DNA of 64,000 nt from Mobula hypostoma (lineage: Eukaryota), in NCBI RefSeq assembly GCF_963921235.1, contig NC_086097.1, positions 61,692,001 through 61,756,000 on the forward strand. The letters are read 5' to 3'. The notes beneath the pieces were generated by a model. It did not search any database and was not told the origin of the DNA. It saw only the letters and a program-made list of their open reading frames with translations. The position numbers and the translations under genes are program-made. Within the stretch, counting starts at the first letter, position 1, and each line of letters begins with the position of its first letter. Below are positions 3,775-27,935 of this stretch, in pieces.

Positions 3775-4001
3775 TGAAGCACCTTCAATAACTCCAAAAG
3801 ACTGAAGTAGGGTAAATACTGAAAGGCTTTTATTCGCAGTAAAATATGACCTCCACGCTGAGTGTCTGCCCCTGGACTGAGGGGGAGGGGCAAGGCAAAA
3901 TCACCTTTATTCATTGATCTGTGGGAGGAGCCACGGGGCAGTCAGCAGAGGGGCGTGTCCAGATAGTTAACCCAGTTATAACATATGAATGTGGTAAACC
4001 A
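3775..4001 (-). repeat. 3' LTR of Gypsy element 1 (inner end disrupted by a microinversion)
   Basis: Matches 8047-8272. The inner boundary is restored by inverting 3986-4005. PPT-like aaaagaagagg lies next to it on the minus strand (4006-4016). Confidence 0.92.
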
Positions 4002-4071
4002 TATACCTCTTCTTTTGTTTTAAAAGAGTCCCGCGCGGTGAAGCGACTGACAATATTTAAAACAAGTATAT

Positions 4072-7000
4072 TTACAGGTCAAGTCTATCAGGCGGTCGAG
4101 TCCGTCGCTGTGAACTACGTAGCACCGGCCGTGATTGCACCGGCGATGGCGGTTGTGCTGGCTCCAGCCTGACTTCAGGTGCCAGCACGTTAGGCGTCGG
4201 TAATCCCTCGTGCATGTGCGTCACGCCCGGTATGGGAGTGTCGTGTGGTGTCTGTATAGGGTTTGAGGTGCACGGTGTCTTGTAGGTACATATATTGGTG
4301 GGTACGGGGTCAATAGTCACTACGGAGTGTTCAGGGTAGGGGCCCGGAGCTCCTGCGGGTGCCAGGTCGCGGATGGAGACCGTGTCCTCCCGCCCATCAG
4401 GTAAAACCACGTAGGCATACTGAGGGTTCGCATGAAGTAAGTGAACCCTCTCGACCATCGGGGAGTATTTATTGCTCCTTACATGTTTCCGGAGCAGCAC
4501 TGGCCCCGGGGACGTCAGCCAAGATGGTAGGGTGATTCCAGTGATCGACTTTCTGGGAAAAGAAAAGAGCCGCTTATGAGGGGTAGCATTGGAGGCTGTG
4601 CATAGCAGGGAGCGGATGGAGTGGAGTGCCTCGGGAAGGACCTCCTGCCAGCGGGAGACCGGCAGTCCCTTTGACCTGAGGGCTAAGAGTGTGGCCTTCC
4701 ACACCGTGGCATTCTCCTTCTCCACCTGTCCATTCCCTCGGGGATTATAGCTCGTGGTCCTACTAGTTGCAATTCCCCTAGCCAGTAGATATTGGTGCAG
4801 CTCGTCACTCATAAACGAGGACCCTCTGTCACTGTGGATATAGCATGGGTATCCGAACAGAGTGAAGAGCTTGCGCAGGGCTTTTATAACTGACGTGATA
4901 GTGGTGTCCGGGCAGGGAATGGCGAAGGAGAACCGCGAGTACTCATCGATAACGTTAAGAAAGTACACATTGCGGTTGGTGGAGGGAAGGGGGCCCTTAA
5001 AGTCAACACTCAGTCGCTCAAAGGGGCGGGTGGCCTTGATGAGTGATGCCTTTTCGGGTCGGTAGAAGTGCGGTTTGCACTCTGCGCAGACTTGGCAGTC
5101 GCTGGTCATCATCCTGATCTCCTCAAGGCAGTAAGGCAGGTTCCAGGTTTCACGAAGTGGAAAAGCCGGGTGACCCCCAGGTGGCAAAGGTCTACATGTC
5201 GGGTGTATAGCCGGTCGATCTGCGCGCTGGCGCATGTTCCCCAGGATAGGGCATCGGCGGGCTCGTTGAGCTTCGCAGGCCTGTACATGATGTCATAGTT
5301 GAAGGTGGAGAGTTCGATTCTCCACCTCAGAATTTTATCATTTTTGATTTTGCCCCGCTGTTGGTTACTAAACATGAATGCGACTGAGTGCTGGTCAGTT
5401 AGCAGGATGAACCTTTTGCCGGCGAGATAGTGCCTCCAGTGCCTAATAGCTTCCACTATGGCCTTGGCCTCTTTCTCCACCGCGGAGTGCCAAATTTCAG
5501 GGCCTTGAAGGGTACGGGAGAAGAACGCCACCGGTCTTCCTGCCAGGTTGAGGGTAGCAGCCAGCTCAAAGTCGGAGGCGTCACTCTCTACTTGGAAGGG
5601 AATGGCCTCATCCACCGCATGCATTGCTGCTTTGGCAATGTCTCCTTTTATGTGGCTGAAGGCTGCGTGGGCCTCGGCAGAGAGGGGGAATGTGGTGGAC
5701 TTGACCAGGGGGCGGGCCTTGTCTGTGTAGTTAGGGACCCACTGGGCGTAATATGAAAAGAAGCCCTGGCACCTATTGAGGGCTCTGAGGGTGTTGGGAA
5801 GAGGGAGTTGCAACAGGGAGTGCATACGGTCGGGGTCAGGGCCAATGACTCCGTTCTCCACAACACACCCAAGGATAGCAAGTTGGGTGGTCCCGAATAC
5901 AAACTTGTCCTTGTTGTAGGTGAGGTTGAAAGCTTTGGCCGCTTGGAGAAATTTTTGGAGGTTGTTGTCGTGATCCTGCCGGTCGTGACCACAGATGGTG
6001 ATGTTATCCAGATATGGGAACATGGCCTTCAGTTGGCACTGGTCCACCATTCGGTCCTTTGCCCTCTGGAAGACAGATACACCATTCGTGACACCGAGGG
6101 GGACGCACAGGAAGTGATAAAGCCTGCTGTCCACCTCGAAGGTGGTGTAAGGGCGGTCCTCCCGGCGGATGGGGAGCTGATGGTAAGCGGATTTTAGGTC
6201 TATGGTTGAGTACACCTTGTACTGTGCTATCTGATTGACCATATCCGCGATGCAGGGTAGAGGGTATGCGTAGAGCTGGATGAACCTATTGATGGTCTGG
6301 CTATAGTCCACGACCATCCTATTTTTCTTCCCATTCCGAACAATGACCACCTGCACCCTCCAAGGACTTGTGCTTACCTCAATGACCCCCTCCCTGAGCA
6401 ACCGCTGCACCTCCGACTTAATGAAAGCTCTGTCCCCCGCGCTGTACCTCCTGCTTTTAGTTGCCACAGGTTTACAGTCGGGGGTCAGGTTGGCGAACAG
6501 CAGTGGGGGAGGGATCTTGAGGGTGGAGAGGCCGCAAGTGGCATCGGTAGTGCGGCAGTTGGCATGGTGTTGGGTGGGATGTGCGGGTCGGTGTGTGGGG
6601 GTGGTCAGAAACGGGGTATGTGACGTATCCCTACAAAACTGGGGATTTCCAACAGTGATTGGTGGGAGGGGCCCATCATACTCCATTGTCACGCTATTCA
6701 GGAGACTCTGGAAGTCGAGCCCCAATAGCACAGGGGCACACAGTTGAGGCATGACCAGTAATGTAAAGTCCCGATACTCTGTGCCCTGCAACACTAGTGT
6801 CGCTACACAACCCTGCCCCCCCCCCCACCGGATATCTGTTGTATGCGACCCGGAAGCCATGGCGACCCTCTGACTTACCGGCCATATCACAAGTCCGCAA
6901 TGCTACATCGTGTCCGGGTAGATAAAACGCTCCGTGTTGCCTGTGTCAAACAGGCAGCTTGTCCTGCGCTCCTCCACCAGGACGTCCATCATTGACCTGG

Positions 7001-8021
7001 TGAGCTGGTGGGGAGCGCTTTGGTCAAGGGTCACGGAGGCCAGGGTTGTGTCGCTGTCTTGGTCCAGCATGGTAGGGTGACCTGTGAGCACCCGTTGGTT
7101 GTAGGTGGTGGGAGGTGGCGCCGACCAAGATGGCCACCCCCATGTCTCGCACGTGGTGGCGGAGTGCAGGGAAGATGGCGGCAGACAAGATGGTGACCCC
7201 CATGTCTCGCACACGGCGCTGCTCGATCCCGCTCGCAGTTTGAACTTACAGACCTTGGCGACGTGGCCCTTCTTTCCGCAGCTAGAGCAGGTAGCTTGTC
7301 AGGCCGGGCAGCATTTCCGGGAGTGCTTCTCGACTCCACAGAAGTAGCACTTCACGGACTCGCAACTGGCAGCAGCCAAGCTCGATTCGCCGGCGGGTTG
7401 CGGGGACTCACAACTGGCAGCAGCCGTGGTCATTTCACCGGCGGGTTGCGGGGTCTGCGGCACCCACGAGGCCATCAGGGAATCACATGCCTGATGAGCC
7501 TCAGAGTTGTGCAGAGCGGCCTCCAGCATGTCCGCCAGCTCGATTGCAGAACTTAAGGTAAGATCAGCTTTTTCCAACAGCCGCTGGTGCACATACACTG
7601 ACCTGCTCCCCGTGACGAAGGTGTCTCTCACTAGGAGCTCTGCATGCTGTCCTGCCGTCAGTTCTTGGCAGCTGCAGGTCCGCACGAGTGTCTGTAGTGT
7701 CTGGACAAACTCAGCACTTGATTCCCCGGGCCTCCGGCGCCATGTTGCTAAACAATGGCACGTGTAGACGGTGTTTAGTAGCTGCAGGTATTGTCCTTTG
7801 TATGCGTTCATCACGCTGTCATAGCTCAGCTGGTCTCTGATCATCAAGTAGACCCGTTGCCTCACCCTGGAATGTAGAACTCTGTGCTTCGCTGTGGGGT
7901 CGGTCACTTCAATCGTCTCTAGGTATGATTCGAAGCAAGCCAGCCAGGGTTCAAAAGCGTTTCCAGCTTCAGGTGTTTGCGGGTCGAGATCTAACTTGTC
8001 GGGTCTCAGAGATCGTTCCAT
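4072..8021 (-). pseudogene. Single gag-pol ORF of Gypsy element 1 with 2 premature stops and 1 frameshift
   Basis: ORFs 7299..8021, 6903..7214 and 5109..6890 share a frame. Gag has two Zn knuckles (CYFCGVEKHSRKC, then CSSCGKKGHVAKVC after the TGA at 7299-7301). Protease CLFDTG; RT (VVDY, IDLKSAYHQ, YLDN); RNase H (SDAS, EKEA, LTD). Integrase (4072..5235) follows a frameshift near 5150, with VDFKG/HSDRG/GQVE. Confidence 0.93.
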
Positions 8022-8030
8022 GCTTTAAAA

Positions 8031-8045
8031 TTACTGCGAATAAAA
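8031..8045 (-). promoter_or_regulatory. Atypical primer-binding site complementary to the element's own LTR (self-priming candidate)
   Basis: Minus strand TTTTATTCGCAGTAA starts 1 nt after the 5' LTR and is a perfect 15-bp reverse complement of LTR 8100-8114. No TGG tRNA-type PBS is present. Confidence 0.75.
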
Positions 8046-8046
8046 T

Positions 8047-8272
8047 TGAAACACCTCCAATAACTCCAAAAGACTGAAGTAGGGTAAATACTGGAAGGCT
8101 TTTATTCGCAGTAAAATACGACCTCCATGCTGAGTGTCTTCCCCAGACTGAGGGGGAGGGGCAAGGCGAATCACCTTTATTCAGGGGTCTGTGGGAGGAG
8201 CCACAGGGGCAGTCAGCAGAGGGGCGTGTCCGGATGGTTAACCCAGTTACAACATATATATGGTTTACCACA
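8047..8272 (-). repeat. 5' LTR of Gypsy element 1
   Basis: Minus strand TGTGGTAAACC...GGTGTTTCA. TATA-like AATAAA at 8181-8176, Inr-like TCAGT at 8151-8147, second AATAAA at 8106-8101. Confidence 0.93.
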
Positions 8273-8664
8273 CTATCATCGTGTAATGTTCCAATTGGCA
8301 ACTTGTGGTTTATTCTTCAAACTGATGAGGTTAATTGCACCAGTTTGAGTTTAAAGTGGTGGAGTTGCAACGATTTTACATACAGATATATGCCATTCAC
8401 CAATTCAGTCTGCCTAAGTTGATCGCAAGAAGTTGGAGTAAGAGAGTAAGGCTATCAACATAAGACTGCATTTGGACTGCTTCAGGAAAAACGTAGTTAA
8501 TAACTTCAAGCTAGATGTGCAGCAGAGACATTTCCCACTTTTCCCCTAAATGCCTTTTGGATTTGAGCATCCATTCAAAATTAACGTTTTTTTTTTCGTT
8601 AGCATCCCATTTTAAAAAAGAATCCTCTAGCAGCCTCTTAAAGTGCACTGAAGAAATATGACAA

Positions 8665-9140: not shown

Positions 9141-10098
9141 ACAATCATGGAGCATTTTTGTGAGCCTTGAATAAGCCTTGAATATGATTTATGAAAAGCC
9201 ACAGAATTTTTAACAATGATTCAGTGTTGCCAAAATGGTTTGGAACAGCATTCAATTTTTAAGTTAAATATTATTTCATTATTATTCATGTTGGAAAGTA
9301 TTGTGGAAATGATTTTAAAATAATTAAAGTCAAAAGATCAGAAAGGCAGATTATTCTGTTTTGTATCATTGAATTTTGACAGGTGACAGAACAGCATTGC
9401 ACATCAGATATTTTTCCAGATGGCTTTTAATATCATTGTCATTTAATTTAACTATGTAAGAGAAATTACCAGCCAGATGATAAAAGATTCTGCAAACCAT
9501 TTGTGTAAGCAACAGTTAGAAAATTTTAGGGTTAGACATTTGATCATTTTTGCTGAATGCACGTATAGTATTGTCTGTATTTTTTTACTTTGCTGTCAAA
9601 ATTCAGTTTCATTAACTTCCTTCCGGGTTCAATGTCTAATTTGCACTTCTGAGGCTTAAAAAGAATGTGACATGTCATTTCAGACTGATTGTTCATGCTA
9701 CCAATCATATAATCTCAGCTGTGTGTCATTGGTGATTGGATAAAGAGAGATAAGAGAACAGCTGTGATATGCCATGGTGGCTGAGTTGTCTATCTATTTA
9801 AGCATATCAAGCCCACATGTTAAATCTGTTCCTTGTCTGTCATTTCGGAAGAATCCACAGCCACATACACTCAGTAGTGAATTTAGGTAACTAACGAAGG
9901 CCACTTGGGTGTATGTTCTTGGTCTTCTGCTGCTGTAGTCCATCCACTTCAAGGTTTGACATGCTGTGCATTCAGAGATGTTCTTCTGCATCACCTTCCT
10001 GACCGCCTGAACCACTCTGGCCATTCTCTTCTAATCTCTCACATTAAAAAGGCATTTGCTCCCACAGAATTGTCACTCTCTGGAAGCATCATACTATG

Positions 10099-10705
10099 TG
10101 TATGGGGTCTTTCTTTTGTTACATTTAAAATGGCGACTTTGTTATGTTAATCTGGGGAATGCGGCTTTGTTGTGCTTTAACGCTGAAGAGAGTTTGCGCT
10201 AACAGTTGTTTTACTTTAAAATGAGATAACAGGGTTCTATTAGCCAATGGGTGGTTATATATCATTTTGTTTTCGGATATCATGCTGTATGATATGACTG
10301 TGGACTGAGTTTTGGCGGGGAGTCGGAGGAGAGATGAGGAAGACCGCGGACGTGTGGAGAGGCTCCGGTTGATCACTCAGGGTGGTCCCGAGCTGTGAGT
10401 CGACGGAATTCGGGTGGTCGTCTGAAGTCGAATTGAGCTCCAACGTAGCGCGCAAAGAACTTGGACTTTGATAAGTGTTGGCGCCTTTTTTTTTCATTAC
10501 TGTCCTCTCTGTATCAAATGTATATTAATGTCATAGAATTAGTAATATCTATAAAGTGTACTTGTTAAAATTTACTGGGTGTGCTGGCTGATGATTGATG
10601 TTTGTGATTGATTCAGGGGGCAAACAACCCTGTGGGGAGTGTTGAGGCGAGTGCTGGGCTGGATTTCCCCTAGACATACACGAGCCAATATAACTGAACG
10701 TTACA
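10099..10705 (+). repeat. 5' LTR of Gypsy element 2 (607 bp)
   Basis: Direct repeat of 16618-17225; TG...CA ends. Confidence 0.97.
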
Positions 10706-10707
10706 AG

Positions 10708-10730
10708 TGGGGGCTACCGTCCTGGATTTG
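10708..10730 (+). promoter_or_regulatory. tRNA-Pro-like primer-binding site
   Basis: TGGGGGCTACCGTCCTGGATTTG lies 2 nt after the LTR. The canonical tRNA-Pro PBS is TGGGGGCTCGTCCGGGATTTG (2-nt insertion and 1 mismatch here). Confidence 0.8.
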
Positions 10731-10777
10731 GACTTTTCGGGAAAGTTGTACTTGTCGTTGTGGTAAGTGGTGTGAAG

Positions 10778-12091
10778 ATGGATCGAGATAAGATTGTAAG
10801 TTGGTGTGAATTTGAGGTGGTACCGGTGAATCATGCATGTGTGGTAAGCGGGGCCGATTATCGCATTTCGGCAGAGGTACTGGTGCGAGGGTTGAGTTTG
10901 ATTAAAGGTATCGGGCAGGTAGAACTTATAGCTAGAAGGGGTGGGAAAGAACTGGAGTCCAGCTGGATGTTGGTGCGGACGAGTGCCGACGTCATGACTT
11001 TAGAACTACCAGCGACAGTCCACGTCCAGGGGGAGGCAGGGCTGTGGGGTCTCCACACCCTCCCGGAGGACGCAAGTGAGGAGGTGCCGGAGGAGGAGCT
11101 AGATGAGGCCCCAGGGGAGGTGCCGGTAGCCAGGGGTGGAGGTGTGGAGTGGGAAGGCTTGGCCAGGCCCCGTCCCTCAGTTAGGGCTGAGACCTCCGAG
11201 TTAGCGGCTGCCATTACCTCCCTGGCGAGAAGGGTTGAGGGGCCCCGTCCGAAGCTGAGAATTTTCTCGGGAGCCAGGCCCACCCCGGGAGGGGAGGATG
11301 AATATGAGACCTGGGTTGAGGATACATCCCAGTTGTTAGAGGTGTGGCCAGTTTCGGATGAGGAAAAGAGACAGCGATTGGTGGAAAGCTTAAGGGGCGG
11401 GGCAGCCCGTGTGGTCCGCGATTTGAGAGCGAAACGCCCTTCGGCTTCCCTGTCAGAGTGTTTGGACGCTTTGGAGGAAGTGTTTGGACTGTCAGGAGAT
11501 CCCTGGCGGCATTTAGCGGAGTTTCAACAAATGGGGCAGAGAAGAGGGGAAAAGCTCTCAGAATACGTTTTCCAGCTGGAAGGGAAGCTTACGGGGTTGC
11601 TGCGACGAGGGGTAGTGAGGGAGGACGAAGTGGCGGAGTTAAGGATGAGCCAGATATGTAGAGGTTCCCGGGAGGATGACAGGGTGGCTTGGAGTATCCG
11701 GCAGTCATTTAAGTGGAGCCCCCCTCCATCATTCGGACAGCTGATCCGAGAGGTACAGGCCGAGGAGAGTGCTTTGGGCCGACCAGGGGGCTCGGACCCT
11801 CAGGGACGGTCTTCAGCGGTTCAGGAGGTGGTAGCCGGGGTGAGATCAGAGAAATCCAAGAGGTCCCCGGGGGGCCGTATCGGGAGGAGAGAGGCGGTGG
11901 GTAGCGGGTGCTATAACTGTGTGAGAGAGGGGCATTTCCGCCGGGAATGTGAGTGGCCGGGGGTGTGTTACAGCTGTGGGGAAGCGGGTCACTTGCGGAG
12001 GGATTGTGAGAGACGAGATGCTCCGAGGGGGGAGGGCCCCCGGGCCACTAAGAAGGGAGAGGTGTCGGGAAACTTAGGAGAGGCTCAGTGA
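10778..12091 (+). CDS. Gag protein, PNMA/MOAP1-like capsid plus two CCHC zinc knuckles (437 aa, uninterrupted)
   Basis: KLRIFSGARPTPGGEDEYETWVE...VSDEEKRQRLVESLRGGA resembles the PNMA capsid signature. Knuckles CYNCVREGHFRREC and CYSCGEAGHLRRDC. First ATG at 10778. Confidence 0.9.
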   Translation: MDRDKIVSWCEFEVVPVNHACVVSGADYRISAEVLVRGLSLIKGIGQVELIARRGGKELESSWMLVRTSADVMTLELPATVHVQGEAGLWGLHTLPEDASEEVPEEELDEAPGEVPVARGGGVEWEGLARPRPSVRAETSELAAAITSLARRVEGPRPKLRIFSGARPTPGGEDEYETWVEDTSQLLEVWPVSDEEKRQRLVESLRGGAARVVRDLRAKRPSASLSECLDALEEVFGLSGDPWRHLAEFQQMGQRRGEKLSEYVFQLEGKLTGLLRRGVVREDEVAELRMSQICRGSREDDRVAWSIRQSFKWSPPPSFGQLIREVQAEESALGRPGGSDPQGRSSAVQEVVAGVRSEKSKRSPGGRIGRREAVGSGCYNCVREGHFRRECEWPGVCYSCGEAGHLRRDCERRDAPRGEGPRATKKGEVSGNLGEAQ

Positions 12092-12127
12092 GGGAACGGA
12101 CTGGAGTCTCGGGAGGAACACGTTCCC
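12067..12127 (+). promoter_or_regulatory. -1 programmed ribosomal frameshift signal (G GGA AAC plus H-type pseudoknot)
   Basis: Slippery heptamer 12067-12073 in the correct gag phase, 6-nt spacer, stem 1 12080-12089 with 12100-12110, stem 2 GGGAACG 12092-12098 with CGTTCCC 12121-12127. Pol is in the -1 frame. Confidence 0.85.
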
Positions 12128-15100
12128 AGAAACCCACTATGGAACCCCAGAAAGAACAAGCCCAAATTCCGGATGGACTGGTGGGACCCTGTTCCAGCGT
12201 GTCCCTACGGATACAGGGAATCTTTGCGAAAGCCTTCCTTGACACCGGGTTGCAGGTTACCTTACTGTACCGGTCGTTCTACAACAAATATCTGAAGCAT
12301 TTGGCAGTAACTCCGTTTAACGCATTGGAGATTTGGGGCATAAGTGATGGTGATTACCCGTACGATGGATACTTGTCAGTGAGATTGGAATTTTCGGAGG
12401 GAGATGTGGGAGTATCGGAAGCCTTTGAGACGCTGGTGTTGGTCTGTCCGGACCCGGTGGAAACCGTTGGTGCTGCCCTGCTAGTGGGGACTAACTCCCC
12501 TCTGGTGCGACGGCTCTTGGGAGCCTGTAAGAAGGCGGCGGGGGAGAACTTTCTGGAGACCCTCTCGGTACACCCCGTGTTCTGAGCGGTGTACGAAGGA
12601 GTGAGTGACCCCCCGGGGCTGGATCCTGAGTGCAAACGAGGGACGGTGTGGTGCACTCAGGCCAGGCCTAAGGTGATACGGCCAGGGGAGGCGGCATTAG
12701 TGATGGGGACCCCCAGATTCCCCGGATTACCGCCAGGCGAGGCCCTGCTAGTAGACGCCCCCGACGACCTGGAAAGGGAGTCCCGGTTCCCGGCTGGGGC
12801 GCTAGTGAGACCTGAATTGCAGAGGCCCTCAGCTGTACAGGCACGGCGGATGGGGGTGATGGTAAGGAACATAACGGAGAGGGAGATCACCTTTAAGCAC
12901 GGGATGCCCCTCGTGCACTTGTTCCCGGTGACGGTGATGTCCAGCACCCCCGTGAAGCCCACTGGAGGAAAACTATTGGAGAACGGGGGGCAGCTGACCA
13001 AGGAGGCCTTTAGTTTTGAAGACTCCTCTGTACCGCCGGAGTATAAGAGCAGGCTGGTGGAGAAGATGCTGAAGTTAGGGGGTGTCTTTTCTCAGGGCGA
13101 GTTTGATGTGGGATGTTCCAAGAGCACTCGGCACACTATCCAAGTGACAAATGACACCACGTTTAGAGAGAGGTCGCGGCGGTTGGCCCCAGCAGATCTG
13201 GAAGATGTGCGGCAGTTGAAAGACGCAGGGATTATTGTGGAGTCCCGAAGCCCCTATGCGTCCCCCATAGTGGTGGCAAGGAAGAAAAATGGGAAGGTAC
13301 GCATGTGCGTGGACTACAGGACCCTGAACCGGCGCACTGTTCCCGACCAATATACGGTCCCGAGGGTGGAAGATGCCTTGGCCTGTCTGAGTGGTGCACA
13401 GTGGTTCAGTGTATTGGATTTGCGGAGTGGGTATTACTAGATTCCGATGAGTGAGACCGGTAAAGAGAAGACGGCCTTTATCTGCCCCCTGGGTTTTTTC
13501 CAGTTCGAACGAATGCCCCAAGGCATCTCGGGGGCCCCAGCCACCTTCCAGCGGCTCATGGAGCGGACAGTGGGGGACATGAACCTGCTGGAGGTATTGG
13601 TGTACCTGGACGACATGATAGTGTTTGGATCTACGTTGGAGGAACATGAGGAGCGGCTGCTGAAGGTGTTGAGTTGGCTGAAGGAGGAAGGGTTAAAACT
13701 TTCCCTGGATAAATGTCAGTTCTGTAAGACGTCGGTCAGTTCTGTAAGACGTCGGTCAGTTATGTTGGGCACATAATCTTGCGAAATGGAGTGGCCACCG
13801 ATCCGGATAAGATAGCCACAGTCACCACCTGGCCGAGACCTCAGAAGGTGAGCGCCTTACGCTCGTTTTTGGGGTTTTGCGGATATTACCGGCGGTTCGT
13901 GAAAGGATATGCGAAAATGAGTCATCCATTGAACCAGCTGCTGTGTGGCTATCCACCTGTGGGGAGGAGGAGGAAGGGAGACCGAGGGTCGGAGGTAGGA
14001 GGATACCTGAACCCAGGGGAGCCTTTTGGATTGAGGTGGGATGCTCAATGTGAGGGGGCGTTCCAATCTCTGAAAAGGGCGCTGACGCAGGCCCCAGTGT
14101 TGGCATTTGCTGATCCCCGGAAGCCGTATGTTCTACACACTGATGCCAGTCACGAGGGTCTGGGGGCTGTCCTGTACCAGGAACAGGGCAACGGATTGAG
14201 GCTGGTGGCGTTTGTCAGTCGGAGTTTGTCGCCATCTGAGAGAAACTATCCCACTCACAAGCTGGAATTCTTGGCATTGAAATGGGTGGTAGTGGACAAG
14301 TTGAGTGACTACCTATATGGGGCCCAGTTTGAGGTGAGAACTGATAACAACCCCCTCACTTATATCCTGACCTCAGCTATGTTGGATGCTACTGGGCACC
14401 GGTGGTTAGCAGCCTTGTCTGCCTATGAGTTCAGCCTGAGGTACCGCCCGGGGAGTCAGAACAGATGCCCTGTCTTGTCGGGCGCACGACGAGTCGGGCA
14501 CGGCCGAGGAGTGGAAGAGTGTCCCTGCTCAGGGAGTAAAGGCCATGTGTCAAGTTGGGAGCGACGGGGAAGTAGGAGCACAGACGGGAACGGATCGGGC
14601 AGTAGATCAATTGGGGGCTGACGATGACGCGCTACCCACTGTTTACTGTAATGTGACTGCTCTGAGGAACAGGCAGCTGCCGGAGTTGAGCCCCCAGGAA
14701 GTGGGGGCGGCTCAGCGTGATGACCCGAGCATTGGCACTATCTGGTACGCTGTTAGCCAGGGTGATATGGGGCAGGTGGAGAAGGCGAAACACGCCTCCG
14801 TTCCCCTACGACTGAAGGAGTGGCCCTGGTTGAAGCTGAAGAACCACGTCCTGTACCGAGTCACGTCGCCTCCGGACCACCCCCGGCGCTGGCAGCTGGT
14901 CATGCCTGAGAAGTATCGGAAGACTGTGCTCCAGGCTCTACATGATGATTCCGGGCACTTTGGGGTAGAGAAGACCTATGGATTAGTCAAGGACCGGTTT
15001 TACTGGCCCCGGATGAGAGGGGAGGTGGAAGAATACTGTAAGACCTGTAGCCATTGTGTCAGGAGGAAGACCTTGTCTGCGTAGGCGGCCCCGTTATCCC

Positions 15101-16596
15101 ACTTGCAGAGTGCGGGACCCATGGACCTGGTGTGTATGGATTTCCTGTCTATTGAGCCAGACACCAGCAACACTGCGAATGTCTTGGTCCTCACGGATCA
15201 CTACACTAGATATGCGCAGGCTTTTCCTACTAAAGATCAGAAAGCAACTACAGTGGCGAAGGTGTTATGGGAGAAGTACTTTGTTCATTATGGCCTTCCC
15301 CGGCGGATCCATAGTGATCAGGGACGGGACTTCGAGAGCAGGCTTATACATGAATTGCTGGATATGCTTGGGGTTGAGAAATCCAGAACCACCCCCTATC
15401 ACCCGCAGGGTGATCCTCAGCCCGAGAGATTTAACCGGACCCTGCTGGACATGCTCGGCACCTTGGAGATTGGACAGAAGAGTAAGTGGAGTCGGCACAT
15501 CGCCCATTTGGTTCATTGTTACAATTGTACTCGCAATGATGCTACAGGGTACTCGCCCTACTATCGGATGTTCGGACGGGAAGCGAGGTTGCCCATTGAT
15601 CTGTGTTTTGGGACTGAAGCGGGGGAAATACCTTGGAAGCCATGTCTGAAGTACATGTCCGATATGAGGAGAGAGTTGAAAAGGGCGTACGAGTTGGCTG
15701 AGGCGGCAGCCACCAAGCAGAACCAGCGGAATAAAAGGAGGTATGATCAGAAGGTAAAGTTCGTCCAGCTATTGCCGGGAGACCGAGTCCTTATCCGGAA
15801 TTTAGGACTACCTGGTAAGCACAAGTTGGCGGACCGTTGGGCAGCCACCCCCTATGTGGTGGAGAGTCAGATGCCGAATCTCCCGGTTTACCGGGTGAGA
15901 CCCGAGGACAGGAAGGGGCCTGTCAAGGTACTCCATTAGAACCACCTGTTGCCTCTGGGTCGAGAGGTGAAGGTAGACCCAGAGCCCGAATGGGAGTTTA
16001 CGCCTAGTACGAGGACTCTGCGAGGGTGCGGGGCGAGGGAAGAGACCGCTGCAAAGAAGACGGGGCCGGTCCCCACCTGGAGAAGGGATACGTCATCGGA
16101 AGATGATGATTCAGACGTGTGGTACCTGTTTCCGTTCGCTGATTCCCCGGTGCCGGGAGAAGAGACTCTTGGCCCTTCCCTCACTGAGTCAGGGGAACCG
16201 AGGGAGGGTGTTGCAGAGCCGCCTGTATTACAGCTGGGATTGGGGGAGGGTGTTGCAGAGCCACCTGTATTACAGCCGGAATTGGGGGAGGAGAGGGTGG
16301 AGGCAGAACCTGAGCCGGAGGGCTCACAGGGGCAGAGGGAGCCCGGTGAAGGGGAAGGTCCGACAGATAGGCCCGAGGGGTCAGCTGGGGTGTCTGAACA
16401 GGGAGAGTCAGCAGAGGAAGTACAGAGGCCTCAGAGGAGTAGGCATCCCCCGGAAAGACTAACTTATACAGCGCCGGGAGAGCAGGGTGTGATCTCTACT
16501 GCCCTGCAAAGTTATGTCACTGCTTTATGCACCTGGGTTGGGTTTTGTGTTTTACAAGGAGCACTGGTGAACTCTGTTATCGTCATGAGGGCATGA
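12070..16596 (+). pseudogene. pol (PR-RT-RH-IN) of Gypsy element 2, with 4 stops and 2 frameshifts
   Basis: FLDTG protease; RT CVDYR/LDLRSGYY/YLDD; RNase H TDAS/KLEFLAL/TDNNPL; integrase HDDSGH..CSHC, CMDF, HSDQG, QPERFN. Stops at 12583, 13438, 15082 and 15937. Frameshifts from a 20-bp tandem duplication (13721-13760) and a deletion near 14462. Confidence 0.93.
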
Positions 16597-16604
16597 CTTT
16601 TATT

Positions 16605-16617
16605 GGTGGGGGGAGAG
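16605..16617 (+). promoter_or_regulatory. Polypurine tract
   Basis: ggtggggggagag immediately before the 3' LTR. Confidence 0.85.
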
Positions 16618-17225
16618 TGTACGGAGTCTTTCTTTTGTTACATTTAAAATGGCGACTTTGTTATGTTAATCTGGGGAATGCGGCTTTGTTGTGCTTTAAC
16701 GCTGAAGAGAGTTTGCGCTAACAGTTGTTTTACTTTAAAATGAGATAACAGGGTTCTATTAGCCAATGGGTGGTTATGTATCGTTTTGTTTTCGGATACC
16801 ATGCTGTATGATATGACTGTGGACTGAGTTTTGGCGGGGAGCTGGAGGAGAGACGAGGAAGACCGCGGACGTGTGGAGAGGCTCCGGTTGATCACTCAGG
16901 GTGGTCCTGAGCTGTGAGTTGACGGAATTCGGGTGGTCGTCTGAAGTCGAATTGAGCTCCAACGTAGCGCGCAAAGAACTTGGACTTTGATAAGTGTTGG
17001 CGCCTTTTTTTTTCCATTACTGTCCTCTCTGTATCAAATGTATATTAATGTCATAGAATTAGTAATATCTATAAAGTGTATTTGTTAAAATTTATTGGGT
17101 GTGCTGGCTGATGATTGATGTTTGTGATTGATTCGGGTGGCAACCGACCCTGTGGGGAGTGTTGAGGCGGGTGCTGGGCTGGATTTCCCCTAGACATACA
17201 CGAGCCAATATAATTGAACGTTACA
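16618..17225 (+). repeat. 3' LTR of Gypsy element 2 (608 bp)
   Basis: Direct repeat of 10099-10705, followed by the TSD TATG. Confidence 0.97.
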
Positions 17226-18055: not shown

Positions 18056-20969
18056 TCTTTTTTTGTTGTGTTCTAAAGGTTGCCTGGGGAAATGGTATCA
18101 AGAATTATCTGAATAGTGGATGGGCTTATGCTTTATCAGACTTTTGGGAAAGTTGACTGCTTTAACGCTTATGTAATTATATTTTCTATAAATCTTAATG
18201 TTTGAATTGATGGCAATGTAATAACTCGAAGCTCAGATTATATGCTTCACCACAGTGAAATACTCCCAATCAGAGCCATGTCTCTAGAGATTTTGGGTGA
18301 AATCTGCAATGATAATTAGTGAAATCATTGGTAGACAATTTTCCCACCGAACAGTTCTCATCAATAAACCCGGTATACCATATGCTGTGCAAAACACTGA
18401 AGCATCAGGAATATGCAATAGACTTGGTTATTAAATGGTCACATATGCCAGCAACCATTCCATTTTACACATCCATTCACTCCAGTGATGTTTTTTGTTT
18501 GATGTGATTCACTGGTTATGCAGATTGTTGATTGGTATGTCATTAAATAAATCACATATGATTTATTCACTGTTTTTAAACTGTGGTTTCTTGAGATTTA
18601 AATTTTCTGAGGCTTGTGAAGCATTGCTATTTAATAACTGGTCCTAAATATTATAGAAATATATACATTAAAATGAGAAGATTAAGAAGGACAGAATTAG
18701 AAACTGCATCCCTACTCAGCAGCTGGGCCTCGAGCAACACTATTAAAATTTCCTGATATTCCTCTGCTACCTAAACTTGCAAATGAATCACACAGCCAGC
18801 ATTCAAACCATCTTAGAAAAAAAATTAACAACCTATTTGTACTTTCATTTTAATCTATACTAATAAGACTTTACAAAGTTTTCATGTAGAAAGGATGGAG
18901 AGATAATGTATCACCATTGTATTCATAATGGTTTTAGTATTTTAAAAAATCCACTTATGAATCAAAATAGTTGAATGCTTTATGTTAAATTAAGCCTGTG
19001 AAATAATTACATGGATATCTGTAAACTATCAAATATGGCATTTATCTTATTCACCGCATGGTGTTGTCACTTAAATTGTGTTACTTGGCTTGTGGAGATT
19101 TCATTTAATTTCAGTGCCTGGCTATCAGACAACTGGTACAAATATTAACAGCAACAGCTTGGAACTACCTAATACTCTATTTTTGAAGAGGCTCAATCTT
19201 TTGGTATTCCAGTCATCGCTGCGCCACATTTCTGTGCCAGTGCTGCCAGGTACAGGCACAATTCATTCACAAGTCCAAACAGACTCATTGAGAAATTGAT
19301 GGGTGAAAATCTCCTCTCACTCTTAGCCATGCTTTTTTTTTTGGACAATACAATGTTCCCTATAATTAAAATAAAAATTAAGGTCACATATATAATAAAT
19401 GCTCTAGTAGACTAGGGAACCTTGTACTTGCTAAAATATTAAGCTGCATCTCATACTCAATCATACTGGTTCGCTTTTTCAGCATGTAAAACACTGGAGC
19501 ATTCACTGCGAGGCAATTAAAATGATTTATAGATGTATCACCTGGTTCATTGTCTTATACTAATCACCATGATTTTGAACTAAATTGAAAAATTAAGAAT
19601 TTAAGCAAAATAAATATAATTTTAGAAGAAGATTTGGATCATGATTTATTTTGATGGCAGAAATATTTTACGTTTCACCTCTCTTCACCTCATTAAATGA
19701 TGTAGATGGGTTGATTTATCATGCTGAAAGCTTTTCATGTAGGTTACCATGATTTTTCAAATAACTCACTTCATATTTTAATAGAATGTGTTCTTAGTTC
19801 TCAGTAGAAAGTCATTGAAAGTTTTCAATGGAAAACATACGTAAATGATGAAACTCCACTCATGGAATGAAACTATATCACTATTATTAATGCTATACAT
19901 TGTTACGACTTGAACTGCAGTAATTCCCAGCTAATAATGAAATTACTACTCCCCCATCATGGGTCTGATATCACAATAGTCTAGGTGGAGTAGAGGCACT
20001 TTGTAACAGCAGGAGTGAAGATAAGGCCACAATGCTAATGGTCCTACTCTTTCAAAAAAAATTGCCAATCTGAAAAAGACTATATTAATGGTTATTTTGC
20101 AATAACATTTACTCCTTGAAAGAAATTGTAATCAATTACTACCAAATAAAAGTTTGCACTTATCATAGCCAACTTGTTTCTAAGTAATGGCCTTGAATGA
20201 TTGTTAGTCGGTTAATCAATATTATAATTATGTTGTTTTATAGATTATTCATTGCAGAGCTCATCAATATTTGTGTTATTATTTTATAAGTCACTATTTC
20301 TGCCTCTGCCATGCTAGCCTACATTCCTGATTGTCCTATTTGTTTCCTATTTTATGTAATACCAATGAAGTAACATCCAAACTCCAGTTTAAAAAGTGCA
20401 TGTAGTGTTCTCCACAACATAATCTCAAATGAAAGACATAAATGAAATCAGTCTACCTCCGGGTCAAGAACATTCACTGCCACTAGGTCCTACTTCTGCT
20501 TTTCTTTCACCAGTACCTCACATCCACCTCTTGTCTCTCAGGCTTCTTTTGACCCCTCATTCCCCTTCATTCCTTTAACCCCCCCCCCCCAGCTTCCTCC
20601 CACCCAATTCCCCTAAACACCCAGCCTCCTCCCTTATCTGACCCTCCACTCTATACAGTACCTGGATACCAACCCTACCATGTCTTCACCATCCTTTCAT
20701 CCTTCCTCTCTCTGAGGTGGAACATTCTGTCCTCAGCAAAGGCCTTACATTTTCTCGCTGCATCCATATCCAGTCAGTTCCATGGCCACCATGATGTTGA
20801 ACTCTTTTTCCATTGCCTCTGTCTCCAGGCATACTTCTTTGACAAGGATTCCTCACCCCTCCACTCTCTCCAATTAATTGTCCTTTCCACTGGATTCAAT
20901 CTCTCTCCTCTTTTTGGACACATAACTCAGGCCTTCTGGCTGCTCTGAATAGCCTCATCTCTAACTGCC

Positions 20970-21845
20970 AATCAGAATCAGAATCAGGTTTATTATCACT
21001 GGCATATGTTGTGAAATTTATTAACTTAGCAGCAGCAGTACAATGCAATGCATAATATAGAAGAAACATAAATAAATCAATTACAGTACATCTATATTGG
21101 AGATTAAAAATCATGCAAAAAGCAGAAATAATATATATTGAAAATGTGAAGTACTGTTCACAGGTTCAATGTCCATTTAGGAATCAGATGCCAGAGGGGA
21201 AGAAACTGTTCCTGAATCTCTAAGTTTGTGCCTTTAGGCTTCTGTACCTCCTACCTGATGCTAACAGTGAGAAAAGGGCACGGCTAGGTGCTGGGGGTCC
21301 TTAATAATAGACACTGCCTTTCTGAGACACCGCTCCTTGAAGATGTCCTGGGCAGTTTGTAGGCTAAAGCCCAAGATGGAGCCGACCAAATTTACGAAAC
21401 TCTGCAGCTTCTTTCAGTCATGTGCAGTAGCCAACACGTCCCCCCATACCCGACAGTGAGGCAGTTTGTCAGAATGCTCTCCACGCCAAATCTCTTCAAA
21501 CTCCTAATGAAGTACAGTCACTGTCTTGCCTTCTTTATTGCTGCATTGATATGTTGGGACCAGATTAGATTCTCAGAGATCTTGACACCCAGGAACTTGA
21601 AACTGCTCACTCTCTCCACTTCTGATCCTTCTATCAGGATTTTTATGTGTTCCTTCATCTTGCCCTTCCTGAAGTCCACAATCAGCTCTTTTTGAAGGGG
21701 AGGTTTTGCATTGCAATTCAGAGAAAATATAACAGCACTGCTCTGGCAGGATAGATTAGTAGACTCAGCTTTCTGATGTTGTGTGCAAGGTTGTTGCTGT
21801 GACACCACTCCATTAGTTGATATATCTCACTCCTGTGTGCCCTCT
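20970..21845 (-). mobile_element. Rex1/Babar LINE 3' part
   Basis: KELIVDFRKGK...EVERVSSFKFLGVKISENLIWSQHINAAIKKARQ (ORF 21518..21808) and a (TCTGAT)n tail at 20970-20987. Confidence 0.85.
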
Positions 21846-21970
21846 CATCTTTTCAACTTCAGCAGACCTTTCTCCTATTCTAACAACATTCCTCTGAGCA
21901 CACTGTCCTCCATTCTCTCTGCGCTATTCCAGTTCAAAGTAAATGTGTTATCAAAGTGCATATATGCCAA

Positions 21971-24900
21971 AAATGGTTGCAGGAGAGCTGTGATTGGCAA
22001 CTAAATGGTTGCAGGAGGGGTGTGATTGGCAACTAAATATTCCTGGATTTTGTTGCTTCAGATGTGATAGAATCAGAGGGGCAAGAGGGGGAGGTTTTGC
22101 ATTCTATGTCAGAGAAAATATAACCAGTGCTCTGGCAGGATAGATTAGTAGACTCGTCTAGGGAGGCTACTTGGGTGGAACTGAGGAATGGGAAAGGTGT
22201 AGTGATGCTTAGAGGGGTGTATTATAGACCACCTAATGGGGAGCAAGACTTGGAGGAGCAAATTTGTAAGGAGATAGCAGATATTTGCAGTAAGCACAAG
22301 GTTGTGATTGTGGCAGATTTTAATTTTCCACACATTGACTGGGAAGCCCATTCTGTAAAAGGGCTAACAACAGGAATTCTGCAGATGCTGGAAATTCAAG
22401 CAACATACATCAAAGTTGCTGGTGAACGCAGCAGGCCAAGCAGCATCTATAGGAAGAGGCGCAGTCGACGTTTCAGGCCGAGACCTTTCGTGGTCTCGGC
22501 CTGAAACGTCGACTGCGCCTCTTCCTATAGATGCTGCTTGGCCTGCTGCGTTCACCAGCAACTTTGATGTATGTTTCTGTAAAAGGGCTAGATGGTTTGG
22601 AGTTTGTAAAATGTGTGCAAAATAGTTTTTTGCAGCAATACATAGAAGTACCAACTAGAGAAGGAGCAGTGCTGGGTCTCCTGTTAGGGAATGAGATAGA
22701 GCAGGTGATGGAGGTATGTGTTGGGGACACTTTGGGTCCAGTGATCACAATACTATTAGTTTCAATATAGTTATGGAGAAGGATAGGACTGGACCCAGGG
22801 TTGAGATTTTTGATTAGAGATAGGATAACTTTGAGGAGATGCGAAAGGATTTAGAAGGAGTGGATTGAGACAATTTGTTTTATGGATAGGATGTAATAGA
22901 GAAATGGAGGTCATTTAAAGGTGAAATTTTGAGGGTACAGGATTTTTATGTTCCTGTTAGGTTGAAAGGAAAGGTTAAAAGTTTGAAAGAGCCATAGTTT
23001 TCAAGAGATATTGGAAACTTGGTTCAGAAAAAGAGAGGGATCTACAATAAATATAGGCAGCTTGGAGTAAATGAGGAGCTCGAGGAATATAAAGAATGTA
23101 AAAAGAATCCTAAGAAAGAAATTAGAAAAGCTAAAAGAAGATATGAGGCTGCTTTGGCAAGTAAGGTGAAAATAAATCCAAAGGGTTTTTACAGTTATAT
23201 TAATAGCAAAAGGATAGTGAGGGATAAAATTGGTCCCTTAGAGAATCAGAGTGGACGGCTATGTGCAGAGCCAAAAGAGATGGGGGAGATTTTGAACAAT
23301 TTCTTTTCTTCGGTATTCACTAAGGAGAAGGATATTGAATTGTGTAAGGTAAAGGAAACAAGAAAGGTAGTTATGGAAAGTATGATGATTAAAGAAGAGG
23401 AAGTACTTGCGCTTTTAAGGAATATAAAAGTGGATAAGTCTCCAGGTCCAGACAGGATATTCCCTTGGACCTTGAGGGAAGTGAGTGTGGAAATAGCAGG
23501 GGCTCTGACAGAAATATTTCAAATGTCATTAGAAACAGGGATGGTGCCGGAGGATTGGCGTATTGCTCATGTTTTTCCATTGTTTAAAAAGGGATCTAAG
23601 AGTAAACCTAGCAATTATTGGCCTGTGAGTTTGACGTCAGTGGTAGGTAAATTGATGGAAAGTATTCTTAGAGATGGTATATATAATTATCTGGATAGAC
23701 AGGGTCTGATTAGGAACAGTCAACACGGATTTGTGCCTGGAAGGTCATGTTTGATAAATCTTATTGAATTTTTTGTTGAGGTTACTAGGAGAGCTGATGA
23801 GCATAAAGCGGTGGATGTGGTCTATATGGACTTCAGTAATGCCTTTGACAAGGTTCCACACGGAAGGTTAGTTAGGAAGGTTCAATTGTTGGGTATTAAT
23901 ATTGCAGTAGTAAAATGGATTCAGCAGTGGCTGGATGGGAGACGCCAGAGAAAAGTGGTGGATAACTGTATGTCGGATTAGAAGGCGGTGTCTAGTGGTG
24001 TGCCTCAGGGATCTGTACTGGGTCCAATGTTGTTTGTCATATATATTAATAATCTGGATGATGGGGTTGTAAATTGGATGAGTAAGTATGCAGATGATAC
24101 TAAGACAGGTGGAGTTGTGGATTATGACGTAGGATTTCAAAGCTTGCAGAGAGATTTAGACCACTTAGAAGAGTGGGCTGAAAGATGGCAGATGGAGTTT
24201 AATGCTGATAAATGTGAGGTGCTACATTTTGGTAGGACTAATCAAAATAGGACATACATGGTAAACGGTAGGGCATTGAAGAATGCAGTAGAACAGAGGG
24301 ATCTAGGAATAATGATGCATAGTTCCCTGAAGGTGGAATCTGATGTGGATAGGGTGGTGAAGAAAGCTTTTAGTATGCTGGCCTTTATAAAGCAGAGCAT
24401 TAAGTATAGGAGTTGGAATGCAATGTTGAAATCGTATAAGGCATTGGTAAAGCCAAATTTGGAGTATTGTGTACAGTTCTGGTCACCAAATTATAGGAAA
24501 GATGTCAATAAAATTGAGAGAGTACAGAGGAGATATACTAAAATGTTGCCTGGATTTCATCTCCTAAGTTACAGAGAAAGGTTGAACAAGTTAGGTCTTT
24601 ATTCTTTGGAGTGTAGAAGGTTGAGATATTTAAAATTATGAGGGGGATAGATAGAGGTGACGAGGATAGGCTTTTTCCATTGAGAGTGGGGGAGATTCAA
24701 ACAAGAGGACATGAGTTGAGAGTTAAAGGGCAAAAGTTTGGGGGGAGCTTCATTACTCAGAGAGTGATAGCTGTGTGGAATGAGCTTCCAGCAGAAGTGG
24801 TTGAGGCAGGTTGGATGTTGTCATTTAAAGTTAAATTGGATAGATATAGGGACAGGAAAGGAATGGAGGATTATGGGCTGAGTGCAGGTCTGTGGGACTA

Positions 24901-24988
24901 GGTGAGAGTAAGAGTTTGGCGCAGGCTAGAAGGGCCAAGATGGCCTGTTTCTGTGCTGTAATTGTTATATGGTTATATATGGTTATAT
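21971..24988 (+). mobile_element. 5'-truncated CR1 LINE (ORF2 APE-RT, decayed)
   Basis: VYYRPPN, ADFNFP, KSPGPD, QHGF, DFSNAFDKVPH, GVPQGSVLGP, YADD, LEYCVQFWSP; 3' tail (ggttatat)n. Confidence 0.95.
22367..22575. mobile_element. Fold-back (hairpin) insertion made of the Penelope terminal repeat
   Basis: Perfect 84-bp inverted repeat (22402-22485 and 22492-22575, loop tttcgt). TSD (t)tctgtaaaagggcta, 15-16 bp, at 22351/2-22366 and 22575/6-22590. Confidence 0.93.
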
Positions 24989-26286
24989 ATCACCATATAC
25001 AACCCTGAGATTCATTTTCTTGCAGGATATTCAATAAATCCAATAGCCACAATGGAATCAATTAAAGAACGCATTATCAGGGCAAACATCCAGTGTGCAA
25101 AAGACAACAAACTGTGCACATACAAAAATAAATAATAATAATAATTAAGCAATAAATATCAAGAAGTTAAGATGAAGAGTCCTTGAAAGAGATTCCATTG
25201 GTTGTGGGAACAATTTCCATATCATTGATGGTGTAAGTGAAGTTGAGTGAAGTTATCCTGTCTGGTTCAGCAACCTGTTAGCTGAGGGGTAATAACTGTT
25301 CTTAAATCTGGCAGTATGGAACCTCTTGTACTTTCTTCCTGATGACAACAGTGAGAAGAAAGCATAACATGGGTAAAAGATGTTCTGCGACTATGGGTCT
25401 TGTTTTCTTGTGGCAATGCTCTGTGGTGGAGAGGGTTTTACCAATGGGCCAAATCCACTACATTTTGTAGGACCTTCTGTTCAAGGCATTGGTGTTTCCA
25501 TGCCAGGCCATGATGCAGCGAGTCAACATACTCTCCACTGCACATCTATAGACACTTGTTGAATTTATAGATGTCATGACGAATCTTCGCAAACTCCCAA
25601 GAAAGTAGAGGCACTGCTATGCTTCCATTGTACTTACACTTAGTGCTGAGCCCCGGACAGGTCCTCTGAAGTGATAACACCAGCAATTTAAAGATGCTGC
25701 CTTTTTCCACCTCTGTTCCTCTGATGTGGACAGGCTCATGCTCCTCTGGTTTCCTCTTCCTGATGTCAATCATCCGATCCTTGGTCTTGCTGACATTGAA
25801 TAAGAGGTTATTGTTGTGTCAGCATCAAACCTACAGACAACGGTGGTGCTGTTGCAGTCAGGTGGACTGACCTCTGCTTTGCTGAGGCCAGATGGCAGAA
25901 CTCAGACACCTCCATTTACCTACTATTGTAAAGGACCCGACTATAAAGCACCAGGCCTTTTGCTCCCATACTACCATTAACCTCATTAACTCTAGAAATC
26001 TCCCATCCACTGTCACCAGCCTCATAGTTCCCATACCCTGCATTGTGTGTTTCCACCTCTCACCCAAGATCCACAAACCCAACTACCCCAGTAGGCCCAT
26101 TGTTTCTGACTGCTCCTGCACCACTGAACTTATGTCTACATACCTCAAATCTATTTTGTCCTGCTTGGTTCAGTCACTTCTGACTTGAGACTACACATTC
26201 TCCGCATCACTTTAATCTTTTTCCGTTCCCTAACTCAGAATACTTCATTTTCCTATGGACATCCAGTTACTGTACACTTCCACCCC

Positions 26287-26380
26287 TGTCCTGCCGAAGG
26301 GTCTCAGCCCAAAACATCGACTATACTTTTTTCCATAGATGCTGCCTGGCCTGCTGAGTTCCTCCAGCATTCTGTGTGTC
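26287..26380 (+). repeat. Penelope terminal-repeat copy with degenerate minimal hammerhead ribozyme
   Basis: gtc-CTGCCGA-agggtctcagccc-AAAACATC-gac resembles the CTGANGA...GAAACGTC core with mutations, followed by the shared tail gatgctgcctggcctgctgagttcctccagca. Confidence 0.75.
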
Positions 26381-26535
26381 ACTACTGTCTTATTTCTATT
26401 TTTGCATTACATATTTTATTTAACCATTTAATACATATAAACTCACAATTTTTCTCTTACTATGTATTGCATTGTAGTGCTGCCACAAAGACGACTAATT
26501 TCACAACACATGCTAGTGATTATTATTCTAATTCT

Positions 26536-27935
26536 GAAGAAGGGAGGAAGATAGAAGTGATGAAATTATCGGCCAGTTATCCTGACTCAATGGTTGAGAA
26601 GATATTGGAGTCCATTATTAAGGATTAGGTTTTGGGGTACCTGAAGGTACATGATAAAAATTTTCTTTCCTTAAGTGCATGTCTTGTCTAACAAATCTGT
26701 CTTTGAGGAAATAATGGGCAAGATAGATAAAGGAGAGTCAATGGATGTTGTTTACTTGGATTTTCAGAAAGTCTTTGATAAGGTACCAAATATGAGGCCG
26801 CTTAAAAAGAGCCCATGGTATTACAAGAAAGATGATGACATGGATAGAAGATTGGCTGACTGTCAGAAGGCAAAGAGTGGGAATAAAGAGGGCCTTTTCT
26901 GGTTGGCTGCCGGTGACCAGTTATGTTCTGCAGGTGTCAGTATAGGAACTGCTTCTTTTCACATTATATGTCAATAATATGGGTGACAGAATTGACGGCA
27001 TTGTGCCCAAGTTTGCAGCCAATATGAAAATAAGTGGAGGAGCAGGTAGTGTTGACGTAATAGGGAGCTTACTGAAGAAATGGGACAGATTGAGTGAATA
27101 GGCAAAAGAGTGACAGACAGCATATAGTGCCGGGAAGTTTATGATCGTGTACTTTGGTAGAAGGAATTAATGTGTAGACTATATTATAAATGGGAAGAAA
27201 ACTCTAACCTCAGAGGTGCAAAGTGATGCTTGTGCAGGATCCTCTAAAGATTAACACAGGTTGATCTTTGATAAGGAAGGCAACCGCAATGTCAGCATCC
27301 TTTTCGAGAGGACAAGTATATAAGAGCAAGGGTGTAATGCTGAGGCTTTATAAAGCATTGGTCAGACCACTCTTGGAGTATTGTAAGCAGTTTTGGGCCC
27401 CTTATTGAAGAAAAGATGTGTTGGCAATAGAAAAAGTCTCGAAGTTTCATGAGAATGATTCCGGGAATGGAAAATGTTAACGTATGAGGAGTATTAAATG
27501 GCTCTGCGCCTGTATTCACTCGAGTTTAGAAGAATGAAGGTGGAGGGTATCTCTTTGAATCTGATTAAATATTGAAAGGCCTAGATAGAGCAGATTTGGC
27601 GAGTATGTTTCCTATAGTGGGTAAGTGTAGTACCAGAAAGTACAGCCTCAGAAAAGAAGGATCTCCATTTAGAACAGAGATGAGGAAGAGCTTCTTTCGC
27701 CAGAGAGCAGCAAACCTGTGGAAATCATTGCTGCAGATGACAGTGGAGTATAAGTCATTGAGTATATTTAAAGTGAAGTTTGATAAGTTCTTGATCAGTC
27801 AGGGCATCAAAGGTTACAGGGAGAAGGCAAGAGACTAGAGTTGAGAGAAATAAATCAGCTATAACAGAATGGCAGAACAGATGCAATGGGACAAATGACC
27901 TAATTGTGCTTCTATGTTTTATGGTTTTATAGTTT
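26536..27935 (+). mobile_element. CR1 LINE (RT and 3' end, decayed)
   Basis: DVVYLDFQKVFDKVP, LYKALVRPLLEYC, FRTEMRKSFFRQR; tail atgttttatggttttat. Confidence 0.9.

Follow-up and report, generated by a model that had tools for sequence, protein, structure and literature searches.

The question raised by this locus is how a Gypsy retrotransposon starts reverse transcription when the position of its tRNA primer-binding site is taken by a sequence complementary to its own LTR. The element lies on the minus strand of the window, by which we mean the whole 64,000-nt stretch of Mobula hypostoma DNA that was analysed. An earlier note on this DNA had proposed a non-chromoviral Gypsy element that primes itself from its LTR. 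Our main reading, to which we give a probability of roughly 0.6, is that this decayed element belongs to a widespread lineage of animal Gypsy elements that lack a chromodomain and would be primed from an internal arm of the LTR and not from a tRNA. Taken together, the readings in which the element primes itself, in whatever geometry, appear very likely.

A decayed Gypsy element and its LTR duplex

All features of the element are given on the minus strand. The 5' LTR (8047..8272) is 226 bp long and has the form TG...CA. The sequences that flank 30 copies become dissimilar exactly at 8272, and assembled contigs have loose ends at 8272 and 8047, which confirms both edges of the 5' LTR. The 3' LTR was found at 3775..4003, with a polypurine tract (4006..4021) 2 nt before it, and the two LTRs are identical in 206 of 230 alignment columns. 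The element is flanked by a 5-bp target-site duplication, GATAG, at 8273..8277, with its partner at 3774-3770. The gag region (6903..8021) starts with an ATG at 8021-8019, 10 nt after the primer site, and contains two Cys/His knuckles, but it is broken by in-frame stops at 7301-7299 and 6905-6903. Downstream are a frame for protease, reverse transcriptase (RT) and RNase H (5109..6902; Pfam RVT_1 and RT_RNaseH) and, in a different frame from RNase H, the integrase (4072..5292) that matches Pfam rve only and ends ...RRTRPPDRLDL without a chromodomain. The LTRs, the target-site duplication, the polypurine tract and the order gag-PR-RT-RH-IN are those of Ty3/Gypsy, and a search of solved structures gave the Ty3 RT as the best match (E 8.5e-40). 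The closest protein matches to the element came from rays. The window copy is a decayed, dead copy of a multi-copy, chromodomain-less Gypsy retrotransposon.

Other repeats were also seen in the window. Short tandem duplications are present in the gag region at 7356-7451 and 7110-7212 (units of 48 nt and 43 nt), and a 46-nt unit occurs in two tandem copies, 93% identical, at 1788-1879. A second, larger Gypsy element occupies 10098-17225 on the plus strand. Its LTRs are about 600 bp long (10098-10705 and 16617-17225, 96-97% identical), and its RT, which is 29% identical to that of the element studied here, served as an outgroup. Large swings in GC and AT skew, from about -0.34 to +0.40, were seen at 20001-34000, which suggests further strand-biased repeats such as LINEs.

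The earlier note had described a perfect 15-bp complement between the primer position and an arm within the LTR, and this is borne out by the coordinates. The primer-binding-site position (8031..8045) begins 1 nt after the LTR, behind a spacer A at 8046, and starts with TTTT rather than TGG. Read as 8045-8031, it is the exact reverse complement of the LTR arm (8100..8114, read as 8114-8100), with 15/15 Watson-Crick pairs. For a 226-nt LTR with four start positions allowed, the chance of a perfect 15-mer complement is about 5e-7. The fold of 8150-8010 gave z = -4.27, and 0 of 200 shuffles were as stable. As had been noted, AATAAA lies within the arm (8106-8101), and the predicted primer 3' end is at 8100. 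It was also correctly noted that the partner strand exists at the 5' LTR only: the same arm is present in the 3' LTR, which is followed instead by GATAG, the target duplication. The loop between the arm and the primer site (8047..8099) would comprise the rest of R and U5, from which the short minus-strand strong-stop DNA is predicted to be copied. A second stem is present in the loop of the fold of the window family. Across 23 families, however, by a crude measure, a second stem beside the predicted cut site was not above shuffles (173/300).

Covariation within the genome and across families

A genome search with the LTR and primer site as the query gave 2,812 first-look candidates, 40 of which were scored. 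Pairs were counted in 56 distinct copies parsed from loci L001-L060, after one unparsed copy and three duplicates were dropped. At the pair 8110/8035, 12 of these copies have T-A and 38 have A-T. At 8114/8031, T-A was found in 14/56, G-C in 19/56 and a G.A mismatch in 17/56. A pattern search for an arm variant at 8107 returned 53 copies, in which site 8038 carries the compensating base (T-A) in 44, the old base in 7 and another base in 2; the reverse search returned 4 copies with the new site base but a non-matching arm. Copying of the primer into the site would predict arm changes that precede site changes. The mismatched copies, 9 arm-only and 4 site-only, are too few to establish this order. 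Subfamilies retain the duplex via three matched changes, with some mismatched copies among them. Compensated variants were also seen in assembled contigs from sequencing runs of other organisms.

RT homologues at 50-60% identity were found in cnidarians, a sea cucumber, an ascidian, molluscs, flatworms, nematodes and arthropods, and are typically one polyprotein of about 1,200 aa. The chromodomain family PF00385 was absent among the 240 homologue matches listed. An alignment of 39 homologues was used to fetch 89 loci from metagenome and genome-bin contigs, and it is in these contig loci that the hairpin of relatives was scored. The RT-RNase H of these distant relatives is 39-58% identical to that of the element. 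A gag-start profile gave a testable upstream region in 44 of the 89 loci; 9 were cut or without the N-terminus, and 36 had no gag match. In seven loci (L067, L072, L079, L084, L088, L092 and L142) something other than the RT match follows the gag start immediately, indicating either a permuted contig or a second element. Scans for relatives in viral contigs found none. Loci L141-L149 are animal-type LTR retrotransposons, yet their contigs are assigned to bacterial genome bins, a sign that these bins contain eukaryotic contamination.

The junction of the LTR end followed by TTT or TCT was found in 43 of the 44 testable loci, and pairing of at least 10 bp with at most one mismatch in 39; one locus, L087, has neither junction nor duplex. 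The relatives and the window element make up 23 families, which share ancestry, so that the following counts are not independent trials. With the first-listed member of each family, a perfect duplex of at least 10 bp was found in 16/23 families compared to 2/506 cross-family pairings, and one of at least 12 bp with one mismatch in 20/23 compared to 9/506. In the best-paired members, pairs 4-13 are Watson-Crick in 223/230 cells, with 2-4 pair types per column, and pairs 2-3 are A-U in all 23 families. Pair 10 is G-C in 21/23 families, with the arm ending in three or four A's. The G of this pair stands three or four bases before the hexamer, varying with the number of terminal A's. Since pair 10 stays G-C regardless of that number, the register is set not from the hexamer but from the LTR edge, the point at which synthesis has to start. 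Between the fixed positions, the letters have turned over almost completely among families.

The duplex is 11-18 bp long across families, and the arm ends 24-70 nt from the LTR end. Paired LTRs, in the loci that have them, bear out the junction and delimit elements of 4.0-4.5 kb. An unanchored scan for inverted repeats recovered the same duplexes. In one locus (L096), pairing is weak at the 5' LTR, and a full complement is present in its 3' LTR. By comparison of these loci, the duplex is a feature of the whole lineage and is not peculiar to the window copy. A duplex that starts from a fixed place after the LTR, with an A-U end and a G-C at pair 10, fits a role in priming. The covariation proposed as a test by the earlier note was found on both scales, as three compensated pairs within the genome and as pairing across the 23 families. 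Self-priming is strongly supported by this comparison, with the covariation, the fixed register at the LTR edge and the lack of a TGG as its three parts.

Priming geometry and competing explanations

The TATA-like box (8176..8181) and Inr-like motif (8147..8151) described earlier are both present. In the window copy the putative TATA-position hexamer reads AATAAA and the Inr-like motif reads TCAGT, with a predicted start at the A at 8149, 35 nt before the arm. In all 72 parsed copies of the window family, the Inr-like A comes 31-34 nt after the TATA-position hexamer, which is TATAAA in 20 and AATAAA in 49 copies of a sample skewed by pattern search. The arm of this family starts 67 nt after the box and 35 nt after the Inr-like motif. 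Because the usual step from a TATA box lands on the Inr-like TCAGT, 35 nt before the arm, the arm is likely internal to the RNA.

The chromoviruses of the same genome provide a contrast. Six chromodomain Gypsy elements (L211, L216, L217, L218, L219 and L221) carry a Tf1-like 11-nt self-primer, and in four of them (L216, L217, L219 and L221) the primer of about 11 nt starts 30-31 nt after a TATA-like box. Thus, the genome seems to host two self-priming designs. Two further loci, L210 and L213, are LTR-bounded, 3-4.4 kb long, and have a chromodomain match without an RT match; no complement of the primer position of 8 nt or more was found in their LTRs. They are possibly non-autonomous or deleted chromoviruses.

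The proposal that the geometry differs from that of Tf1 stands in part: the motif spacing in the window family and the contrast with the in-genome chromoviruses favor it, but the CAG of the Inr-like motif is also acceptor-like. No fixed spacing of a promoter or TATA motif upstream of the arm was found in the distant families, so that the Inr can be relied on as no more than a motif of the window family. A pyrimidine tract followed by YAG is modestly enriched upstream of the arm (mean 8.1 compared to 6.8; 2/300 shuffles). Such a tract is present at 8170-8148 in the window and also in L091, L128, L131, L149 and other loci. The Inr-like CAG could alternatively be a splice-acceptor-like motif, which might be used for a spliced gag RNA or for trans-splicing. 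The protease region at first hinted at a conserved donor to go with it, but this was rejected, with at most 3/36 per column. In the assembled contigs, whose RNA status is uncertain, no start, cut or poly(A) site was visible.

In the mechanism that we propose, transcription would start about 35 nt upstream of the arm, near 8149, and the arm would be internal to the RNA. The leader would fold back, and the arm would pair with the primer site. By analogy with Tf1, the RNase H of the element may cut behind the arm's final A (8100), leaving a 3'-OH on a leader fragment of roughly 50 nt. The RT would then extend through U5 and R as far as the cut, copying about 53 nt. Because the cut would lie at the poly(A) hexamer, the first strand transfer would use as its repeat the short stretch from the hexamer to the poly(A) site, 15-30 nt. 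Incidentally, the hexamer would be hidden in its 5' copy and remain free in its 3' copy.

This last point bears on a known problem. Retroviruses must suppress the poly(A) signal of the 5' LTR, and splice donors and RNA structure take part in this, as described in the available text of PMC3694450. The poly(A) hairpin and splice donor of HIV-1 and the U1 snRNP in foamy virus address the same problem, and structure that differs between the two LTRs is part of the solutions (PMC3694450, available text). Unlike in retroviral suppression, the candidate masking strand here is the primer site itself. The arm ends in AATAAA or ATTAAA in 13/23 families and in near variants in the rest, and the canonical hexamer of the arms is usually followed by GCC or ACC. 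In L063 and L069, a non-canonical arm end is accompanied by a canonical hexamer in the unpaired loop, outside the duplex. Masking of the 5' poly(A) signal is plausible in the window element but is not universal in the lineage.

Another possible explanation is that transcription begins with the arm's first base, or that the leader of the RNA is trimmed or trans-spliced there. The primer would then be a 5' end of 13-16 nt, as in plain Tf1 geometry, and only the overlap with the hexamer would be unusual. The length of the duplex, 11-18 bp, is close to the 11 of Tf1, a weak TATTTTA adjoins the arm in the window copy, and the distant families show no conserved promoter spacing. However, such a geometry predicts the 30-31 nt spacing that the in-genome chromoviruses show, and in the window family no TATA-like motif stands some 30 nt ahead of the arm; in the 72 parsed copies, the TATAAA/AATAAA box and the Inr-like motif stand 67 and 35 nt before it. 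We consider this explanation unlikely. A somewhat less probable one is that the RNA starts downstream of the arm, so that both arm and hexamer would belong to U3. In this case the 3' LTR's arm would pair with the primer site and circularize the RNA, which would be primed from its 3' end. The arm is identical in both LTRs and covariation cannot tell which copy pairs, while the acceptor-like motif and hexamer could mark a 3' terminal exon rather than a promoter. Against this are the promoter-like TATA/Inr pair upstream of the arm in the window family, the very stable local fold with its 54-nt loop, and the short distance from arm to LTR end in all families (24-70 nt), which a local hairpin would favor.

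The hairpin could also be an RNA-processing device that only hides the 5' poly(A) signal, with some other RNA as the primer. The canonical hexamer in 13/23 arms would agree with this, as would the part that RNA structure plays in suppression of the retroviral 5' LTR signal (PMC3694450, available text). We find it very improbable, since the duplex fills the whole primer position from a constant base after the LTR, the place of pair 10 follows the LTR edge and not the hexamer, 10/23 families keep the duplex without a canonical hexamer, and no other primer site is visible before gag. Least credible of all is that a host tRNA or tRNA fragment matches the primer site, its complementarity to the LTR being a coincidence. 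Copia lineages include cases of half-tRNA priming, according to the portion of PMC6317226 available. However, the site starts with TTT and not TGG, and so cannot pair with a CCA end, and its letters differ in every family, following the LTR of that family. Rfam gave two matches at chance level only, and the comparison with host tRNAs suggested by the earlier note, which covered the one type present among 30 retrieved loci, found no match of at least 6 nt to one copy of that type, tRNA-Lys(TTT). The tRNA reading appears largely refuted by the covariation. A dense cluster of tRNA-Lys(TTT) gene copies was seen at about 4.02-4.33 Mb of G000:C90 (L156-L179).

Relation to known self-priming elements

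In a FastTree of RT-RNase H, with rows anchored on one clade member, 61 sequences including the window element form one clade (support 0.975). Seven chromodomain-linked RTs of the same genome form a separate group (support 1.0; identity 25-31%). The phylogeny called for by the earlier note, which here takes the in-genome chromodomain elements as its comparison, excludes close kinship of the element to these chromoviruses and gives the lineage no clade name. Its description of the element as non-chromoviral is supported by the lack of a chromodomain in the element or in the 240 listed homologues and by an RT only 25-31% identical to those of the chromodomain-bearing elements.

The names of homologues were uninformative for naming the clade. 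Cigr-1, from Ciona intestinalis, has LTRs of about 245 bp, one frame of about 1,200 codons and a SURL-like gag, and its clade has also been reported in molluscs. It shares the 4.0-4.5-kb, single-frame build of our lineage, which we take to resemble the Cigr-1 clade or one of the MolGy clades, a likeness by general description; an ascidian homologue was among the RT matches. The Cigr-1 clade is named in the available part of PMC6238403, and Cigr is not mentioned in that of PMC2774666.

The primer of Tf1 is the first 11 bases of its mRNA, freed by an RNase H cut (PMC7175516, available text). Our lineage shares with Tf1 and Tf2 of Schizosaccharomyces pombe, Tj1 and the Tf1/sushi chromoviruses membership in Ty3/Gypsy, the absence of a tRNA site, a primer site complementary to the 5' LTR and a single gag-pol frame, as far as these are described in the accessible parts of bioRxiv 2022.12.06.519325, PMC7175516 and PMC4600332. 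In contrast to the Tf1/sushi elements, it lacks a chromodomain, its RT stands apart from the in-genome chromodomain elements, and its duplex, 11-18 bp long, stops at a poly(A)-like hexamer 24-70 nt short of the LTR's end. The arm is predicted to be internal, whereas the primer of Tf1 is the first 11 bases. A second stem beside the cut, as in the three-duplex pretzel of Tf1, is present in the window family and, by the crude measure used, did not exceed shuffles across the 23 families.

Self-priming has been demonstrated for Tf1; it has been predicted for the Tf1/sushi group (PMC4600332, available text) and already outside the chromoviruses for TAR (PMC6317226, available text). For the TAR lineage of plant Ty1/copia (Houba, Osr-1) and for the Tcn1 chromoviruses, it was likewise predicted from complementarity between primer site and LTR; these belong to another superfamily or clade, with plant hosts, and an overlap with the poly(A) signal is not described in the portion of that article available (PMC6317226). 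The priming of our lineage is not described in the available text of PMC5006619, PMC3601003, PMC6934838, PMC6238403, PMC13524379, PMC11042837 or PMC2774666. Our literature search, with subscription journals and Repbase Reports outside its scope, found no published description of self-priming in a non-chromoviral animal Gypsy clade. Repbase Reports may include some self-priming Gypsy entries. Self-priming itself is known; here it is likely in a whole lineage of chromodomain-less animal Gypsy elements, probably in another layout than that of Tf1.

Gypsy self-priming is treated as a hallmark of the Tf1/sushi chromoviruses. Homologues of the present lineage were found in cnidarians, echinoderms, ascidians, molluscs, flatworms, nematodes, arthropods and cartilaginous fish. 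Tentatively, we suggest the broader possibility of a pan-metazoan Gypsy lineage in which self-priming arose independently of the chromoviruses and takes a new geometry, with an internal primer cut out of the leader at the poly(A) signal. The enzyme might read the AAA end and the G ten bases back, and one hairpin might provide the primer, set the length of the transfer repeat and silence the 5' poly(A) signal.

If self-priming holds throughout, this would be a second large animal lineage with tRNA-free priming, pointing to its repeated origin or ancient retention. Such elements would be beyond the reach of silencing by tRNA fragments and would be expected to escape primer-site finders based on tRNAs. 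Their constant AAA end, together with the G of pair 10, would offer a handle on how RT/RNase H chooses where to cut an RNA duplex. The overlap with the hexamer may be an economical solution to the 5' polyadenylation problem that very short LTRs face.
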